Origin: Candidatus Saccharimonadales bacterium
GTDB taxonomy: Bacteria > Patescibacteriota > Saccharimonadia > Saccharimonadales > JANWIN01
Direction of reading: 5' to 3'
Assembly: GCA_025449905.1 (NCBI GenBank)
Contig: JANWIN010000012.1
Location: 45,318 to 109,317 of the forward strand
Length of the DNA: 64,000 bases
Program-made: the position numbers and the translations under genes
In this document: in pieces, positions 3,042 to 61,670 of the stretch
Numbering within the stretch: the stretch's first letter is position 1
Layout of the letters: each line of letters opens with the position of its first letter
Notes under the pieces: generated by a model
Seen by the model: only the letters and a program-made list of their open reading frames with translations
What the model was told of the DNA's origin: nothing
The model's database searches: none

Positions 3042-3659
3042 ATGGTCGACAAAAAGAAACTGCACTATTACTGGACTAAACTCCGGCCGATTAGCTATTG
3101 GTATTTTTTACTGGCTTTTTTAATTAGCTTAGTTATAACTGTTCACGCCTTGCGTCAAAATAATCTACATATGCTTAAACTTAAAAGTGCTGTCACCCAA
3201 GCTGACAAAAATAATGGTAACGTTGAAAAGGCTCTCCAAAATCTGCGAGCATATGTTTATGCTCATATGAATACAAACCTAGCCAGTGGTCCAAATGCTA
3301 TCAAACCACCAATTCAACTTAAATATCGTTATGAGCGTTTATTAAAGGCCGAACAAAAGCGGGTAGGTAGTGCCAACGACAATGTTTACACGGCTGCCCA
3401 GCATTACTGCGAAGCTAAATATCCAAGTAGTTTCTCCGGCGGACCACGTACACCTTGCATTGCCGATTACGTTTCTAGCCATGGAGTAAAAACCAAACCA
3501 ATTGACGATACGCTTTACAAATTTGATTTTGTATCGCCGCGCTGGTCGCCGGACCTAGCCGGCTGGGGCGTGGTTATAACAACAATCCTGCTTTTCTTGT
3601 TTTTACTTAGGTATGGGCTGGAGCGGTGGGCTCGCTCGGTTTTAAAGACTCACGAATAA
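3042..3659 (+). CDS. hypothetical membrane protein
   Basis: 205 aa ORF with N- and C-terminal hydrophobic helices; TATAAT at 3026-3031 ten nt upstream of ATG. Confidence 0.6.
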   Translation: MVDKKKLHYYWTKLRPISYWYFLLAFLISLVITVHALRQNNLHMLKLKSAVTQADKNNGNVEKALQNLRAYVYAHMNTNLASGPNAIKPPIQLKYRYERLLKAEQKRVGSANDNVYTAAQHYCEAKYPSSFSGGPRTPCIADYVSSHGVKTKPIDDTLYKFDFVSPRWSPDLAGWGVVITTILLFLFLLRYGLERWARSVLKTHE

Positions 3660-6325: not shown

Positions 6326-6735
6326 AGCGGTAGTAAATCTACGGTTTGATTCACCAAAGGCTGGACCAGAGAATTAATCGGTCCCTCGGGCCTAGAGCTG
6401 GATTGGGCTTCTTGCGGCGTTGAAGCGCCTGAGCTTTTAGTCGCTAAACTAGGCGAGCTGTTTGCTGCTTCTACACCATTAGCAACTCTAGAGCTTGGGT
6501 TCAATGAATTGTTATTTGACGAGCTACCAGTCGCTGGCGGCGGACTATTTATCGCCAATGTCTGTTTATAATTCGGCTCTAGCCTTTCAGTAACTGCCGA
6601 AGCCGGTAGAACTGGAACGAACGGTTGTTTTGTCGGTCCTCGCATCACCAACAAAAGTCCTATTAAAATTACCAATAAAACGGTTAGTCTAATATCTCCT
6701 AGTACTCTAACCATGACTATAATTATGGCATTCAA
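6322..6735 (-). CDS. hypothetical membrane-anchored S/P/N-rich protein
   Basis: 137 aa ORF, N-terminal TM helix, low-complexity exterior part; start uncertain. Confidence 0.45.
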   Translation of the reverse strand: MNAIIIVMVRVLGDIRLTVLLVILIGLLLVMRGPTKQPFVPVLPASAVTERLEPNYKQTLAINSPPPATGSSSNNNSLNPSSRVANGVEAANSSPSLATKSSGASTPQEAQSSSRPEGPINSLVQPLVNQTVDLLPL

Positions 6736-9929: not shown

Positions 9930-9951
9930 ATGCTTGATATAATGTAAATAG

Positions 9952-10395
9952 ATGTTCACAAAAACAAAAAACATTATAAAAAGTCCTTTTTGGCAGCAGT
10001 TTCGCGATACGCGGGCTATTGGCCTAGCGGCCTTTGCCGTTATTGCCGTACTAGTTACCTGGAGTGCTGGCAAAGCGGTGCAGAAAAATTATACTCTGCA
10101 AAAACAAATTTCGACGCTAAAACAACAAAACGACGTTAAAAAATTAGAAAACGAGAACTTGCGGCTTTCCAATCAGTACTATGAAACAGATAGGTTTTTA
10201 GAATTGGCCGCTCGGCGTCATTTTGGCAAGGCCGCACCCGGGGAAACGGTTGTATTTGTGCCAAAAAGTGTGGCTTTGGCTAACTCCACCAATATACCCA
10301 GTAGTATCCAAGCCCAAAAAATTATTAAACAAGCCGATAAACCTGCCTACCAGCGCAATTTTCAAAAATGGATAGATTTCTTCCTGCATCGTTAA
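9952..10395 (+). CDS. septum formation initiator family protein (FtsB/DivIC-like)
   Basis: N-terminal TM then coiled coil LQKQISTLKQQNDVKKLENENLRL and RHFGKAAPGETVV. Confidence 0.7.
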   Translation: MFTKTKNIIKSPFWQQFRDTRAIGLAAFAVIAVLVTWSAGKAVQKNYTLQKQISTLKQQNDVKKLENENLRLSNQYYETDRFLELAARRHFGKAAPGETVVFVPKSVALANSTNIPSSIQAQKIIKQADKPAYQRNFQKWIDFFLHR

Positions 10396-10420
10396 ACGAA
10401 GCGTAGTATCATATTAGTTT

Positions 10421-11911
10421 ATGTTTAAGAAACTTGACGCTTTTATTAGCGGCCGTAGATTTTTTATTCTGATATTGACCCTCTTTATTTTTTCGGCCAG
10501 CTGGATTACCCTAAGCGGCCGCTATCCTATGCCGTTTGATGAACAGACTCACGTTGGCACCATTCAATATTATGCTGACCATCCCAACCCGTTTGCTAAC
10601 ACTCAACCACCCGAAACCTATCAGTACGGCCTGATAGCTCACGATCCTTCATATTTGTATCACTATCTACTTAGTTTTCCATGGCGATTAATTACGGCGC
10701 TGACTAGTAATTTCATGACGCAGGTAATAGTGCTAAGAGCAATTAATATTGCCCTTTTTGCTTTTGCCATTGTTTTGTTTAGAAAAGTTTTAAGACGCGC
10801 CAAATTATCTGAAAGGATTACAAATATAAGTATATTTCTTTTTGTATTGACGCCACTGGTTCCGCAGGTCGCTGCTCAAATAAATTATGACAATGTATTT
10901 ATTCTAATATTGGCGGCCTGTTTACTTTTAACTCAAGTCGTAACCCAAAAGCTTAAAAGCTCAAGCTGGGACATCACCAGACTTGGATTATTATCTGGCT
11001 TAGTTTTGCTGGGTACTTTGTTCAAGTTTACTTTTTTACCTATGGCTGCGGCCATATTTGGCTACCTAGCTTGGCAAATTATAAAAACTAAAAAAAAGAA
11101 TAATAAATTATTTGCTAGTTTTAAACCCCAACTGGCCAAAATGCCAAAACTTAAACTCTGGGCGTTAATTATTTTTGTACTTTTGAGTCTCGGGCTTTTT
11201 GTGCAACGTTACGGCTATAATATAGTCCGATATAGTTCTCTAAACCCAGCTTGTCGGCAAGTAATAAGTGAAGAAGCTTGTTTAAAAAATACGGTCATTC
11301 AGCGCAATCATGATTTTTTGGCAGACAAACCGACAACTTTTAAACTTAACCCTTTCGAATATTTACTGTATTGGTTTAACCATATGGGTTTTAATTTGAT
11401 GTTTGCGTTAAACGGACCTTACAGTGCTTATTTCATTGGCCGCCCGCTGGTATTTCCTGAGCTAACGGCGATTGTATTTGGCACCGCGGGTTTAGTTTTG
11501 AGTGTCTATTTTTGGCGCAAAATCTGGGCCAACTCCGCACTTCGCTTTTTAATATTAATTATTTTTGCCTATGGGCTTAGTTTGCTAGTTAATAATTATT
11601 TAAACTTCTTAAAGTATGACTTTCCGGTTGCTGTTCAGGGACGATATTTAATCCCGATTTTAATACCAGTTTATGCGATTTTTGCCCTGGCCTTTAAAAA
11701 TCTATTTAAAAGTAAGGTGCAAATCGGCAAACTGGCCATGTGGGTGGCTCTGCTTGGTTTTATCTACGGGGGCGGAGTATTTACCTATATTGTGCGCAGT
11801 GACGAGGGTTGGTATTGGCAAAAGCCGTATGTTAATAAAATAAACAAGGATCCGCAAAAAATACTTAGAACATTAATAATTTACGACGACGATAACAGAC
11901 CGAAATTATAA
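10421..11911 (+). CDS. polytopic membrane protein, possibly GT-C type glycosyltransferase
   Basis: 496 aa, more than 10 hydrophobic segments; family assignment loose. Confidence 0.55.
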   Translation: MFKKLDAFISGRRFFILILTLFIFSASWITLSGRYPMPFDEQTHVGTIQYYADHPNPFANTQPPETYQYGLIAHDPSYLYHYLLSFPWRLITALTSNFMTQVIVLRAINIALFAFAIVLFRKVLRRAKLSERITNISIFLFVLTPLVPQVAAQINYDNVFILILAACLLLTQVVTQKLKSSSWDITRLGLLSGLVLLGTLFKFTFLPMAAAIFGYLAWQIIKTKKKNNKLFASFKPQLAKMPKLKLWALIIFVLLSLGLFVQRYGYNIVRYSSLNPACRQVISEEACLKNTVIQRNHDFLADKPTTFKLNPFEYLLYWFNHMGFNLMFALNGPYSAYFIGRPLVFPELTAIVFGTAGLVLSVYFWRKIWANSALRFLILIIFAYGLSLLVNNYLNFLKYDFPVAVQGRYLIPILIPVYAIFALAFKNLFKSKVQIGKLAMWVALLGFIYGGGVFTYIVRSDEGWYWQKPYVNKINKDPQKILRTLIIYDDDNRPKL

Positions 11912-22433: not shown

Positions 22434-22479
22434 AAAATTGTCCAGAATCGTGACGATCGTCACAAAATTGTACAATTTT
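22434..22479. repeat. 46-bp three-dyad palindromic element, copy L1
   Basis: AAAATTGTccag-N4-GTGACGATCGTCAC-N4-AAAATTGTACAATTTT; dyad centres 15 bp apart; between divergent promoters. Confidence 0.7.
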
Positions 22480-22484
22480 GGGTG

Positions 22485-22511
22485 TTGGCACTCTTGACTG
22501 GCGAGTGCTAA
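22485..22511 (+). promoter_or_regulatory. CIRCE operator 1 (HrcA binding site)
   Basis: TTGGCACTC-N9-GAGTGCTAA vs consensus TTAGCACTC-N9-GAGTGCTAA; overlaps TTGACT -35. Confidence 0.85.
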
Positions 22512-22520
22512 TTTGTTAAG

Positions 22521-22547
22521 CTAGCACTACATTAATGCGAGTGCCAT
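22521..22547 (+). promoter_or_regulatory. CIRCE operator 2 (degenerate)
   Basis: CTAGCACTA-N9-GAGTGCCAT, overlaps hrcA start codon. Confidence 0.55.
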
Positions 22548-47566: not shown

Positions 47567-47779
47567 ATGGGATTAATGCACGAGGCTAAAAAACAAGGTT
47601 TACTTCCTGAAAAAGTGCCAAGCAGAAGGAGTTTACACCCTCATCTCAGTGGATTAGTCATCGAGTCAGCCGAAGGAGTTAGATTTGCTCACACAGCAAC
47701 TACACTACCACAAGAAGCCTTACCTGAAGTTATGATGATAGAAAGTGAACCTGAGCAAACAGCCACTCCAAATGGCTAA
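47567..47779 (+). CDS. hypothetical 70-aa protein between recA and recX
   Basis: ATG immediately after recA TAA; AAGGAGG 6 nt upstream inside recA 3' end; overlaps recX ATG. Confidence 0.5.
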   Translation: MGLMHEAKKQGLLPEKVPSRRSLHPHLSGLVIESAEGVRFAHTATTLPQEALPEVMMIESEPEQTATPNG

Positions 47780-48377
47780 AATTACCTCTATAAAACAGCA
47801 GGTCAAGGATTCAAAACGCTATTCGATTTTTATTGACGGGAAATATAGTTTTTCGCTCAGCGAGCTGGCGCTAATAAACAGCGAGCTAAAACTTGGGCAG
47901 GAAATTTCTAAGAGTGAGCTAAAAAACTTCAAGCAAGAATCAGACCTAGATAGAGCCTACAACCGAGTTTTAAATCTGTTAGCACGCCGATCACGCAGCC
48001 AATGGGAAGTTGAAGATTACTTAAAACGCAAAAAATACGATAGTGAACAGATTGAAAAAATACTTAACAAGTTAAGGGACAGGTATTTAATAAATGATTT
48101 ATCATTTGCCAATGCTTGGATAGAAAATCGTCGTCTGCTTAAAAACATGAGCAAACGCAAACTAATGCAGGAACTGCGAGCTAAACGGATTAACGACGAA
48201 ATCATCAATGAAGTCATGGGTCTGGACGAAACCGGCGAGCTGGAAGTCTTAAAAGAACTGGTTGCCAAAAAGCGCAGCCAAAGTCGTTATAAGGATGACT
48301 TAAAACTCATGCAATATTTATCTCGCCAAGGTTTCAACTACAACGATATTAAGACTGTCCTACAAAAAGAAGACTAA
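47772..48377 (+). CDS. recX: recombination regulator RecX
   Basis: MAKITSIKQQ..R..I.IDG start typical of RecX; three-helix repeat region; GTG 47745 is an alternative start. Confidence 0.8.
   Translation: MAKITSIKQQVKDSKRYSIFIDGKYSFSLSELALINSELKLGQEISKSELKNFKQESDLDRAYNRVLNLLARRSRSQWEVEDYLKRKKYDSEQIEKILNKLRDRYLINDLSFANAWIENRRLLKNMSKRKLMQELRAKRINDEIINEVMGLDETGELEVLKELVAKKRSQSRYKDDLKLMQYLSRQGFNYNDIKTVLQKED
48064..48075. repeat. one-mismatch variant TTAACAAGTTAA (inside recX)
   Basis: 20-mer aaaatacttaacaagttaag identical to variant in glyA (61567-61586). Confidence 0.75.
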
Positions 48378-48383
48378 TCAAGC

Positions 48384-48430
48384 AAAATTGTACAACTTTG
48401 TGACGATCGTCAATATCTTGTACAATTTTT
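48384..48430. repeat. 46-bp three-dyad palindromic element, copy L2
   Basis: AAAATTGTACAA-N4-GTGACGATCGTCA-N5-TTGTACAATTTTT; same 15+15 bp dyad spacing as 22434-22479. Confidence 0.7.
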
Positions 48431-48432
48431 CG

Positions 48433-48984
48433 CTAGGTAGCGGGACTAAGCGGGACGGGAGCTGTTTGGGTTTCACCATCTTCAACGCCTTGAAGCGGGT
48501 CTTGAACGACAATCTTTTTGTTAGTAATTTCAGTAATTTGATCACGGTCTATGGCCAAACCGCCACCGCTAAAACTTTTTACAAGTGATTGAGCAATATA
48601 GATTTTGCCAATATACATGGTTTCAACTTCAACAGCATAGTCGCTGACCTTACCCAGGCGTTTCTTGCTAACAGTTACAACGGGCTTACCAATTAATGAA
48701 AAATTGAGTTTAATTATATCTTTGAGACGCACGAGTTCATCTGGCTGGCTTAACACTTCATGATCATTAACCGCAATACCTTGCGGCAAAATGTCACGGA
48801 TATCTTGACTGAGAAGAATCAGTTTTTGTTTGCGATTAAAGCTATCTTGGCAGAAAAAGCCCTCCACTTTTAAATTGTTGGGGTTGATTATAGCCTCAAG
48901 AGTCTGGCCTACCTGATTACCGGCCCGAAGGCTCATAACCGGCTGATTTAAAAAAGTCTGGCTCAAGTGAAACATCTGTTTCAA
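48433..48984 (-). CDS. PRC-barrel-like domain protein (tentative)
   Basis: Two repeats of a small beta-barrel-like segment (V.SLRAG..VG....II.P..L.V.GF; LIGKPVVT...K.LGKVSDY.V). Confidence 0.5.
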   Translation of the reverse strand: MKQMFHLSQTFLNQPVMSLRAGNQVGQTLEAIINPNNLKVEGFFCQDSFNRKQKLILLSQDIRDILPQGIAVNDHEVLSQPDELVRLKDIIKLNFSLIGKPVVTVSKKRLGKVSDYAVEVETMYIGKIYIAQSLVKSFSGGGLAIDRDQITEITNKKIVVQDPLQGVEDGETQTAPVPLSPAT

Positions 48985-58025: not shown

Positions 58026-58787
58026 ATGGGAAAAACTAATCTTAAATTGGAAAACGCGCCTATTGTGGGAGTAACTGCAACTCATTACACAGAACCAAAA
58101 GAAGTTCGTTTTCAGCTGGCTAAAAAAACTGTGGAGGCATGGAGAAAAGCTGGCCTACCGCTTATTGTTGCTGATACATCACCTAAGTCTTGGGTCGTGG
58201 ATGAATTGGCAGATCGAGGGGCTATTATATGCCCCAAACCCAGCCCGGGCTTAGCAACCCAGTATATAGACGGTGTAAATTTTGCGCTCAAGAACGGCGC
58301 AAAGAAAATTCTAACCGCCGAGCCAGAAAAAATTGATCTAGCCAAATTTGCCCTTGACCCCATTAGCCATAGTCTAGAGCATAGCGATATTGTTGTGGTG
58401 GGCAGGACTCTTAAATCTATGCGCTCATTACCGACTTACCAAGCAAAAATTGAAGAAGCCACAGCTTTGGTATTTGAAAAGTTTGGTTATCCGCCAGACG
58501 TTATGTCCGGCATCCGTGCTTATTCAAAAGAAGGCGCTAAAGTGTTCGTTAAATATGATGCTGATAAATATGGCAACAACTGGGTTCGCTTGCATGAACC
58601 TTTAGTCCGAGCTCGCAAAAAGGGACTGAAGATAACTGGGGTCTTGATAGATCTTATATATCCGCAAGAGGTTCGCGACCAAGAACAAGATAATCCCGCC
58701 TTTGACATGAAACGGCTTGACCAAAGCCTAATACATTTACAGTGGCTTCTAAAACAAGAGGGCTACAAGATAAGCTTCCCAGTTTAA
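58026..58787 (+). CDS. hypothetical protein (Rossmann-like alpha/beta pattern)
   Basis: 253 aa ORF; 4-nt convergent overlap with murA fusion gene. Confidence 0.5.
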   Translation: MGKTNLKLENAPIVGVTATHYTEPKEVRFQLAKKTVEAWRKAGLPLIVADTSPKSWVVDELADRGAIICPKPSPGLATQYIDGVNFALKNGAKKILTAEPEKIDLAKFALDPISHSLEHSDIVVVGRTLKSMRSLPTYQAKIEEATALVFEKFGYPPDVMSGIRAYSKEGAKVFVKYDADKYGNNWVRLHEPLVRARKKGLKITGVLIDLIYPQEVRDQEQDNPAFDMKRLDQSLIHLQWLLKQEGYKISFPV

Positions 58788-60304
58788 ATTTCGTTTAAGA
58801 CCTGGATATTAGCACCAAGGCTGTTGAGGCGTTCGGCTAAATCTTCATAGCCACGATTGATTGAGTAAACATTTCTAAGAGTCGACATGCCGTCAGCGGC
58901 AAGCATGCCAATTAGTAAAATCACGGCTGGCCGCAGGGCCGGTGGGCAGGCGACATCGGCGGCGCTGAACTTTGTTGGCCCATCTATGTAAGCACGGTGT
59001 GGATCGGCCAGAGTGACATTGGCGCCTAGCTTACGCATCTCGGTATAATAAAGTGCCCGCTCGTCATAGACCCAGTCATGTATTAAAGTGCGGCCTTTAG
59101 CTACGGCGGCAATTGGAATAAAGTAGGGCAGGTTATCAATATTAAGTCCCGGGTAAGGGCGGGCATAAATCTTTTCATCCAAAGCTTCTAGCTTGCCATG
59201 ATGTTTATAAATTGTGACGTTGGCCAGTTCGGTGTGGCCATTATGAGCCTTATATTGCGAAGAAACTTTAAACCTTAGACCCATTTTTTTAAGCTTTAGT
59301 AGTTCCAGTTCCAAAAACTCAATTGGTGCTCGCTTAATTGTGATTTCCGAGTCTGTAGTTATAGCCGCCGCAATGAAAGTCATGGCTTCAATCGGGTCTT
59401 CGCTTGGGTAATATGTAACATTCTTTTTTATCTCACGCACGCCTTGAACTCGCAGCGTGCTGGTACCAATGCCCTCAATTTTGACCCCCAGCTTTCTCAA
59501 AAAGAAACACATATCCTGCACCATGTAATTAGCGCTAGCCATTTTTATAACTGTTTCCTGCTCAAAACGCGCAGCGGCCATCAAAACATTTTCAGTGGTA
59601 GTATCACCAGATTCATAAAGTACTATTTGCGGCGTATGTTTTCTATTGACTGTGACGTTGTAGTGACCGCTTTTAGCCAGGATGTTGACGCCTAGTTCCT
59701 CCAAGGCAAATAAATGTGGCTGAACAGTTCTTGTACCCAAACGACAGCCGCCGGCGTAGGGAATCTTAAATTCATTGAATATATGCATCAGCGGCCCAAG
59801 CATCATGAGCACGCTGCGGGTTTTGCGAGCTGCGGATTTATTCATCTTGGCCATATTAGGTTTAGCTGGTGGTTTAATTTCCAAATCGTTACCGGCCAGC
59901 CATTTAACCTGCACACCGATACTCTCTAAAACTTCAATAATACGATTAACTTCCTCAATTCGCGGCATGGCTTTGAGCCGAGTCGTGCCTTTGTTAAGTA
60001 GAGCAGCAAAGAGTAGGGCTACTGCTGCATTTTTAGAAACCTTGGTTTCAATCGAGCCTTTTAGCTCATGGCCGCCCTCCACTCGCAGATTCATTGAGCT
60101 ACCGGAAATGCTGATAATTGGCTTTTGCAGAACGTCGCTAATGCGTCCCAAGGTATCTAAGCTAAGGTTTTGTTTACCATGTTCAATCCGGTTGACGGCC
60201 GATTGGCTGGTGCCAAGCTGGCGGGCAAAAGCGGCTTGGGTTAGTCCGCGGTCTTGCCTTAATTGATAAATAAGATGGCCAATTTTTTCGTTTGTGGAGG
60301 GCAT
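58784..60304 (-). CDS. murA: XRE-type HTH domain fused to UDP-N-acetylglucosamine 1-carboxyvinyltransferase (MurA)
   Basis: N-terminal LRQDRGLTQAAFARQLGTSQSAVNRIEHGKQN, then MurA body with catalytic-loop Cys (YAGGCRLGTRTVQPH). Confidence 0.85.
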   Translation of the reverse strand: MPSTNEKIGHLIYQLRQDRGLTQAAFARQLGTSQSAVNRIEHGKQNLSLDTLGRISDVLQKPIISISGSSMNLRVEGGHELKGSIETKVSKNAAVALLFAALLNKGTTRLKAMPRIEEVNRIIEVLESIGVQVKWLAGNDLEIKPPAKPNMAKMNKSAARKTRSVLMMLGPLMHIFNEFKIPYAGGCRLGTRTVQPHLFALEELGVNILAKSGHYNVTVNRKHTPQIVLYESGDTTTENVLMAAARFEQETVIKMASANYMVQDMCFFLRKLGVKIEGIGTSTLRVQGVREIKKNVTYYPSEDPIEAMTFIAAAITTDSEITIKRAPIEFLELELLKLKKMGLRFKVSSQYKAHNGHTELANVTIYKHHGKLEALDEKIYARPYPGLNIDNLPYFIPIAAVAKGRTLIHDWVYDERALYYTEMRKLGANVTLADPHRAYIDGPTKFSAADVACPPALRPAVILLIGMLAADGMSTLRNVYSINRGYEDLAERLNSLGANIQVLNEI

Positions 60305-61631: not shown

Positions 61632-61635
61632 AACT

Positions 61636-61657
61636 AATACTTAACATGTTAAGTATT
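61636..61657. repeat. TTAACATGTTAA palindrome copy 6, extended to 22-bp perfect palindrome; likely bidirectional terminator hairpin
   Basis: aatacTTAACATGTTAAgtatt between convergent glyA and murB. Confidence 0.9.
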
Positions 61658-61670
61658 ATGAACAAGATAA

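Follow-up and report, generated by a model that had tools for sequence, protein, structure and literature searches.

We confirmed a palindrome of 47 bases at the junction where recX meets its convergent neighbour, and we found that it belongs to a family of DNA sites, each built of three dyads, that lie on both sides of genes for short PaaX-like proteins in other genomes. Judged from these comparisons, the palindrome, which we call L2, is most likely a stand-alone docking site of a PaaX-like protein and not an ordinary terminator. More specifically, and with moderate confidence, we predict that a short PaaX-family protein (~190 aa) has in L2 a solitary copy of its cognate DNA site.

The element at the recX junction and its sister copy

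L2 lies in a 64-kb stretch of DNA (the window, meaning the whole stretch that was analysed) with a GC content of 0.43 and genes including pilB, recA, recX, tsaE/tsaB, RNase Y, type IV pilins and hrcA-grpE-dnaK-dnaJ. Relatives of its RecX that bear a name are labelled Saccharimonadales, Saccharibacteria or Patescibacteria, which assigns the window to Saccharibacteria. Sequence read-out, self-matching, alignment to its sister copy L1 and ranking of inverted repeats all placed the element at 48384–48430, where the letters are AAAA TTGTACAA CTTTG TGACGATCGTCA ATATC TTGTACAA TTTTT (47 bases). Its layout is symmetric, with an arm of 8, a spacer of 5, a core of 12, a spacer of 5 and an arm of 8 bp. 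The features of the junction and the sister copy are as follows.

47772–48377, + strand: recX, stop codon at 48375–48377; start as in the 201-aa database protein P0001 (100% identical)
48384–48430, no strand: L2, whole element including its A4 and T5 flanks
48388–48395, no strand: left arm of L2, TTGTACAA, palindromic by itself
48396–48400, no strand: left spacer of L2, CTTTG; family-wide, the length is constant and the letters vary
48401–48412, no strand: central 12-bp palindrome of L2, TGACGATCGTCA, with the centre ACGATCGT
48413–48417, no strand: right spacer of L2, ATATC
48418–48425, no strand: right arm of L2, TTGTACAA; with the following T it gives TACAAT, an outward-facing −10-box lookalike
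48433–48984, − strand: gene for a PRC-barrel protein (Pfam PRC, E 5.5e-5), convergent with recX; stop codon at 48433–48435
22434–22479, no strand: L1, the sister copy, AAAA TTGTCCAG AATCG TGACGATCGTCA CAAAA TTGTACAA TTTT

The recX stop, in a gene whose homologs have detectable RecX Pfam domains, lies 6 nt ahead of the A-run of L2, and the PRC-barrel stop lies 2 nt beyond the T-run. The gap between the two stops is 55 bp, and L2 takes up nearly all of it. The original prediction had placed L2 between two 3′ ends and excluded a simple promoter operator at this locus; both points held, with the recX stop (+) and the PRC-barrel stop (−) on its two sides. The claim that L2 is a second copy of a repeated three-dyad unit was also correct. 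Its letters were exact, and L2 aligned to L1 without gaps and in register, with 37/47 positions equal. The sub-motif offsets likewise agreed between the two copies, although the value of +37 that had been given for one of them was loose. The inner TACAA of the left arm of L2 reads TACCA in related sites.

Within the window, the L2 47-mer occurred once at up to three mismatches, with 0 expected, and the core TGACGATCGTCA was found in L1 and L2 only. The count of ACGATCGT was 2, and L1 and L2 were the top two inverted repeats by length. A search of the window with Rfam 15 at gathering score returned tRNAs only and no match to the element, and a permissive Rfam scan of 48250–48560 gave one chance-level match (E 0.98). 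A literature search on the sequence words of the element returned primer lists only.

L1 has a divergent adenylate-kinase-like gene on one side and the CIRCE/hrcA promoter region on the other. Its TACAAT precedes the first of two CIRCE sites before hrcA by 9 bp, and its weaker GACAAT points to the divergent adenylate-kinase-like gene. L1 overlaps a plausible promoter ahead of CIRCE/hrcA and could serve as an operator there, because TACAAT before CIRCE/hrcA parallels the TGGTATAAT, TTGTACAAT or TGGTAACAT of the copies upstream of PaaX-like genes. The CIRCE-like inverted repeats, immediately downstream of L1 and directly upstream of hrcA, are in tandem at 22485–22511 and 22521–22547 (TTGGCACTC-N9-GAGTGCTAA and CTAGCACTA-N9-GAGTGCCAT); the second runs into the start codon of hrcA (22546).

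The recX junction differs among relatives. In three of them (L042, L047 and L048), the element is absent from the junction and the recX and PRC-barrel genes share 4 bp, and the 60 kb available from the three hold zero copies of the element. L2 looks like an insertion of ~50 bp into an otherwise gapless junction, because the 55-bp gap at L2 corresponds to a 4-bp overlap in these relatives. In the one relative with an element at this junction (L043–45, RecX 75% identical), the element is decayed, ATGTACAC TAAAGT TGACGACCGTCA TAAAAG TAGGACAA. Its spacers are 6 nt long, the centre of its core is broken (GACC) and its arms are weaker; it forms no significant hairpin (−6.2 kcal/mol, z −0.3). The decay is compatible with weak or no selection at this junction. 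Between recA and recX, at 47567–47779 (+), there is also a small ORF without a Pfam match, and ORFs of 87–105 aa are called at the same position in relatives (L043, 2240–2503; L042, 1075–1392).

Two further observations concern the rest of the window. An unrelated 12-bp palindrome, TTAACATGTTAA, occurs at 690, 5874, 20994, 35598, 54571 and 61641, with one-mismatch copies at 48064 and 61573. This word is strongly over-represented (8 matches at up to one mismatch against 0.4 expected; 8 was reached in 0/100 shuffles). Its copies are mostly intragenic, and two lie exactly at convergent gene junctions. A perfect 24-bp palindrome at 61635–61658, in a gap of 39 bp, is centred on one copy. The word may resemble DNA-uptake sequences or be linked to methylation. 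Additionally, a 506-aa protein encoded at 58784–60304 (−) has an XRE-type HTH at its N terminus (HTH_3, E 1.4e-14) fused to a full EPSP-synthase/MurA-type domain (E 4.5e-49); it is unusual for a regulator domain and an enzyme to be combined in this way.

A site family that brackets PaaX-like genes

We scanned species genomes, JGI metagenomes and viral contigs for the pattern GACGATCGTC-N6-TTGTACAA. Most matches across the three sets were chance, and a subset had the second arm at the correct offset. The strict scan of 185,579 species genomes gave 13 matches against ~17 by chance, a rough estimate, and only one of them was relevant, a three-dyad copy in a Saccharibacteria MAG (L008). A perfect three-dyad copy was found on a contig (L027, GC 0.43) resembling those of the candidate phyla radiation (CPR), and five three-dyad loci came from one metagenome genome of GC 0.60, Ga0272448. 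The single viral-contig match, inside a portal-gene coding region, is probably chance. Matches in Gemmatimonadales (L004, L012, L019, L028 and L031) consist of the core and one arm only in a promoter-like AT island and were set aside as probable sigma-70 promoters.

In Ga0272448, whose PaaX-like protein has homologs labelled Verrucomicrobia, the 38-bp unit is TTGTACAA TTTTG AGACGATCGTCT CAAAA TTGTACAA. This unit is 97–100% identical between loci, with flanks that are 74–90% identical or unrelated. Neither chance nor local terminator evolution explains an AT-rich 38-mer that is intact in a 60% GC genome and also found in CPR bacteria. The left part of L2, AAATTGTACAACTT, also shares a 14-nt identity with the copy upstream of the Saccharibacteria (L008) PaaX-like gene. 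A site family that flanks short PaaX-like genes in both CPR bacteria and a Verrucomicrobia-like bacterium points to a specific protein partner.

An alignment (A2) of 15 copies, restricted to those of standard spacing, showed what is constant in the family. The ACGATCGT centre was unchanged in 15/15 copies, and the arms followed TAC(A/C)A...T(T/G)GTA with 22 bp between them, a spacing that was again constant in 15/15. Two-sided arm changes from A-T to C-G occurred three times at columns 13/38, and the outermost pair of the core alternated between T-A and A-T with the dyad symmetry kept. By our own tally from the alignment table, spacer complementarity outside the GC-rich genome was ~51%; in every copy from the GC-rich genome the spacers were identical. 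Recognition of three dyads on duplex DNA is favoured over selection for a continuous hairpin, because the spacers are only ~51% complementary while the dyads co-change.

The contexts of 11 elements could be classified: four lie between convergent gene ends (L2, L027, L034 and L072dn), two between divergent genes (L1 and L037) and the rest in tandem. Among the genes next to solo copies or to PaaX-like genes are recA-recX, recD2, uvrABC, dnaE, hrcA-dnaK and a thioredoxin-like gene, which hints at a stress or repair theme in a sample too small to claim one. The earlier caution that adjacency to heat-shock genes and to recA-recX may be coincidental was sound, as the neighbouring genes show no consistent functional theme. 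We also considered L040 and L034 as adjoining pieces of one contig; ORF continuity over the join gave this no support.

Some copies have repeated sequence around them. The L027 copy lies in a 360-bp intergenic region that also has short direct repeats just downstream of the element (6370–6460; ATCGCGAA three times and CAAGCTCTGCTT twice), similar to iterons or to an additional binding array. Three copies of the Verrucomicrobia-like genome lie inside a longer repeat of ~125–260 bp that is 74–90% identical (L023 11862–11984, L025 2053–2306 and L037 11248–11504). The element is ~300 bp upstream of the next gene in L025 and L037, and neighbouring gene calls are uncertain in L023. An ORF beside one copy had no match in Pfam; we take it to resemble the N terminus of an IS transposase.

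The family is associated with PaaX-like genes. We fetched six independent loci of such genes, and copies of the element lay on both sides of the short PaaX-like gene in 6/6.

L008: two copies (relaxed scan) around a 192-aa gene; Pfam PaaX_M, 'PaaX central Cas2-like domain', E 4.6e-23
L050–L059: 73% identical ortholog of the L008 protein in the same argS...ileS synteny; AGACGATCGTCT units on both sides
L060–L067: 45% identical to the L008 protein; Paceibacterota, between uvrA/uvrC and uvrB; ACGGCCGT-N8-TGGTAACAT on both sides
L068–L070: 45% identical to the L008 protein; AGCGGTCGTATGATTTGTGGTTTTTT on both sides
L071: 51% identical to the L008 protein; ACGATCGT units with TACCA/TGGTA arms on both sides
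L072: Verrucomicrobia-like, 266-aa PaaX-like gene at 10001–10801; copies at 9937–9974 and 10805–10842

The upstream copy lies over the promoter region and ends 12–50 bp ahead of the ATG, and the downstream copy begins 0–40 bp past the stop codon (0–3 bp in L008, L050 and L072). The observed flank-to-flank similarity was reached by 0–2 of 60 shuffles per locus, and by our own arithmetic the chance of a given 8-mer falling in both 110-bp flanks of one gene is ~3e-6. The core varied with the protein subfamily. It is ACGATCGT in L008, L050, L071 and L072, ACGGCCGT in the P0165 loci (45% identity) and GCGGTCGT in the P0182 loci. Because the core changes with the subfamily while the architecture stays constant, the pattern is the one expected of a site and a DNA-binding protein evolving together. 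In L050, at 3396–3425 and upstream of ileS, the outer arm of the downstream copy forms a tandem duplication (ATCGTATAATTAAAA twice).

In the AF2 model of the L008 protein (mean pLDDT 79.7), residues 15–85 form a winged helix-turn-helix and residues 113–176 a ferredoxin-like beta-alpha-beta-beta-alpha-beta domain. Its best fold match in the PDB was PaaX of E. coli W (8a39; E 1.9e-4 over 194 columns), followed by many Cas2 structures. Sequence profiles gave weak matches to MarR/HxlR-type winged helices (wHTH) and to Cas2. The family is large (clustered at 50% identity, it has 796 clusters at E ≤ 1e-30 and 3136 at E ≤ 1e-10), and at least one member is named a Cas2 endonuclease by NCBI. The P0165 gene, between uvrC-uvrA and uvrB in L060–L067, bears the NCBI name 'CRISPR-associated endonuclease Cas2'; this is probably a mis-annotation of a regulator-type protein with a wHTH and a Cas2-like part. 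In the 64-kb window, the family HMM, tblastn and Pfam searches of 10 unassigned ORFs found no PaaX-like gene, and a PaaX-like partner elsewhere in the genome of L2 is a prediction: one gene for a protein of ~190 aa, with a TGACGATCGTCA-type site on each side.

Candidate roles of the element

In the mechanism that we favour, the outer half-sites TACAA...TTGTA (TACCA...TGGTA in other lineages), fixed 22 bp apart with the 8–12 bp palindrome ACGATCGT midway, would be bound, by analogy with E. coli PaaX, by a dimer or higher oligomer whose two winged helices contact the arms. A second dimer, or else the dimerisation domain, would read the core. At its own gene, the protein would have one copy over the promoter, consistent with autorepression, and a second after the stop codon, and copies such as L1 and L2 would be additional targets away from that gene. 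A plausible promoter is overlapped by the site at L1, and a promoter region by the copies upstream of PaaX-like genes, but none by L2. Classical repression is not the role of L2, because it is upstream of no gene. Instead, bound protein together with the −18 kcal/mol hairpin and the U-run would most plausibly halt read-through in both directions. L2 may equally be a recently inserted orphan copy with little function. Blocking of transcription from both sides and a functionless orphan copy are the leading options for its local role.

It is also conceivable, though unlikely in our judgement, that L2 is simply a small copy-and-paste palindrome of MITE or REP type at the recX/PRC-barrel junction with no host function; it may on this account be a solo derivative of a site–gene–site PaaX-like cassette. 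The occurrence of the element in the window and at L043–45, with a 4-bp gene overlap instead in L042, L047 and L048, fits such a history, but no target-site duplication was found at L1, L2 or L027. The 38-bp units of the Verrucomicrobia-like genome are near-identical amid unrelated flanks, and the identical spacers of the GC-rich-genome copies fit copy-and-paste as well as they fit selection; the copy number is nevertheless low, with 2 per 64 kb in the window and 0 in the 60 kb of relatives. Convergent gene ends, which supply 4/11 contexts, speak for such a palindrome. A PaaX-like gene flanked by its own sites does look transposon-like, yet no recombinase or Y1 transposase is adjacent, and no transposase was found next to L1 or L2. 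The PaaX-like genes are moreover single-copy, and their synteny persists over many samples and in orthologs that are 73% identical; plasmid and phage sequences gave no BLAST matches. A mobile origin of the solo copies and their reading as PaaX-type binding sites are compatible and not mutually exclusive.

We consider it distinctly improbable that L2 is a bidirectional intrinsic terminator, at which the recX and PRC-barrel transcripts would each fold a hairpin with a U-run and stop. A terminator or roadblock is possible at L2 because its RNA folds at −17.9 (+) and −17.8 (−) kcal/mol (z −4.8 and −3.9), followed on both strands by a U-run (U5 or U4). However, L2 was not called by the terminator scan, and its stem is AT-rich with a 5x5 internal loop. 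Its position between convergent genes, shared by L027, L034 and L072dn, would suit a terminator, but the three-dyad unit also occurs between divergent genes (L1) and upstream of PaaX-like genes. L027 and the GC-rich-genome copies are without a U-run, and complementarity of the spacers is not maintained across the family. The other convergent pairs in the window overlap or leave 0–39 bp, and no hairpin was called at the five junctions scanned. Together, these tight junctions, the 4-bp overlaps of recX with the PRC-barrel gene in three relatives and the decayed L043 ortholog with its lost hairpin argue that a terminator or roadblock role did not shape the sequence of L2. The original prediction had offered a terminator or roadblock and a REP-like element as possible functions. 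The roadblock and the REP-like element are still live options, whereas a plain intrinsic terminator is disfavoured. For the chromosome-structuring site that it had also named, the comparisons gave no support and no contrary evidence.

We see very little probability in a bidirectional promoter, with the arms as outward −10 boxes (TACAAT) around a shared operator and antisense RNAs running into recX and the PRC-barrel gene: a scan did find TTGTGA-17-TACAAT on the + strand of L2, and the gene-proximal arm of upstream copies is TGGTATAAT, TTGTACAAT or TGGTAACAT, but promoter-like matches in the region are at chance frequency (14 against 16.2 expected), the downstream copy of L071 is TGGTATGTG, and the conserved unit stops at TTGTACAA, with T, C, A or G as the next base in the GC-rich copies, so the −10 T is not conserved. 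We would likewise be surprised if the unit of site, PaaX-like gene and site were an unrecognised minimal selfish or mobile module. The wHTH/Cas2-like protein of such a module would recognise, and perhaps nick or recombine, 38-bp three-dyad palindromes, and solo copies like L2 would be footprints or non-autonomous derivatives inserting at gene ends. The PaaX-like protein keeps the Cas2-type invariant Asp in an FFDIPE motif (D119 in the short PaaX-like protein P0121).

The finding connects a large family of short PaaX-like proteins, so far uncharacterised, with a conserved 38-bp site. Transcription factors are very scarce in CPR bacteria such as Saccharibacteria, and to our knowledge almost none of them has a defined binding site. 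Here, a protein, its site, autoregulation and a small set of extra targets, including the hrcA-dnaK promoter region, are predicted together. The bracketing also raises the question of why lineages so far apart, CPR and Verrucomicrobia, should both have the gene between two copies of its own site.

Comparison with known systems

Several known elements were considered and rejected. L2 differs in sequence from CIRCE, the HrcA operator (TTAGCACTC-N9-GAGTGCTAA). The matS site of MatP has the 13-bp consensus GTGACRNYGTCAC in a MatP-encoding enterobacterial-type genome; the L1 core reads GTGACGATCGTCAC, 14 bp with a 4-nt centre, and L2 reads GTGACGATCGTCAA. HIP1 (GCGATCGC) is a cyanobacterial word of very high frequency; the CGATCG centre is all that the two share, and ACGATCGT occurs just twice in the window. 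Going by their familiar motifs, LexA boxes, parS, NrdR boxes, the OhrR operator and the cop box are unlike L2 in sequence, as are dif, attC, telomere-resolvase sites and the att sites of large serine recombinases. A MITE would account for the inverted arms, but no direct duplications flank L1, L2 or L027.

Like elements of the REP/BIME class, the element here is an imperfect intergenic palindrome (38–46 bp), often between convergent genes, and appears as an insertion relative to close relatives. The hallmarks of REP/RAYT systems are many genomic copies, a conserved GTAG head and a RAYT (Y1 transposase) gene. By contrast, copies are few here (two in the 64-kb window, none in the 60 kb from relatives), a GTAG head is lacking and no RAYT gene was seen, with no transposase next to L1 or L2; in these respects L2 does not fit a REP/RAYT element. 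The strict fixed spacing of the three dyads and the tight linkage to the gene of a DNA-binding protein are further differences. Rho-independent bidirectional terminators share with L2 a hairpin and U-run on both strands and a position between convergent genes. They differ in that the stem here is AT-rich and interrupted, that the unit is also found in promoter regions, and that its sequence, beyond its structure, is conserved across phyla.

Genes flanked by the sites of their own protein have precedents in parC1/parC2 of the pB171 partition operon and in lacO3 at the end of lacI, and the bracketed PaaX-like genes resemble them in this respect. Unlike the parC1/parC2 partition operons, the locus here is a chromosomal single-gene locus with no ParA/ParM partner.

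The closest resemblance is to the PaaX operator of E. coli and Pseudomonas, a long-range dyad of ~38–39 bp with two inverted half-sites about three helical turns apart. According to a review (PMC9493321), the sequence bound by E. coli PaaX is TGATTC(N27)GAATCA, and the protein acts as a repressor of its own promoter. Its operator spans 39 bp against 38 bp here, and its half-sites are separated by N27, whereas the arms here are 22 bp apart. In both systems a copy lies at the promoter of the regulator itself, consistent with autorepression, and the protein that goes with the site folds as PaaX does, with a winged helix and a Cas2-like middle domain. Long-range dyad geometry is therefore a known property of the PaaX family, because the E. 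coli operator is itself a 39-bp long-range dyad (PMC9493321). The systems differ in the sequence of the half-sites and in the central palindrome ACGATCGT, which is absent from the E. coli consensus quoted in PMC9493321. In addition, the protein here, at ~190 aa, is without the C-terminal phenylacetyl-CoA-binding domain, no paa catabolic genes are nearby, and a second copy directly after the stop codon of the gene is the rule. Neither PMC9493321 nor the other papers that we found mention a central palindrome, a short form of the protein or a bracketed gene, and our literature search found no paper naming PaaX together with CPR. Compared with known PaaX operators, what appears to be new on the sequence evidence is the combination of different half-sites, an invariant central palindrome, a truncated protein and a gene bracketed by two sites.
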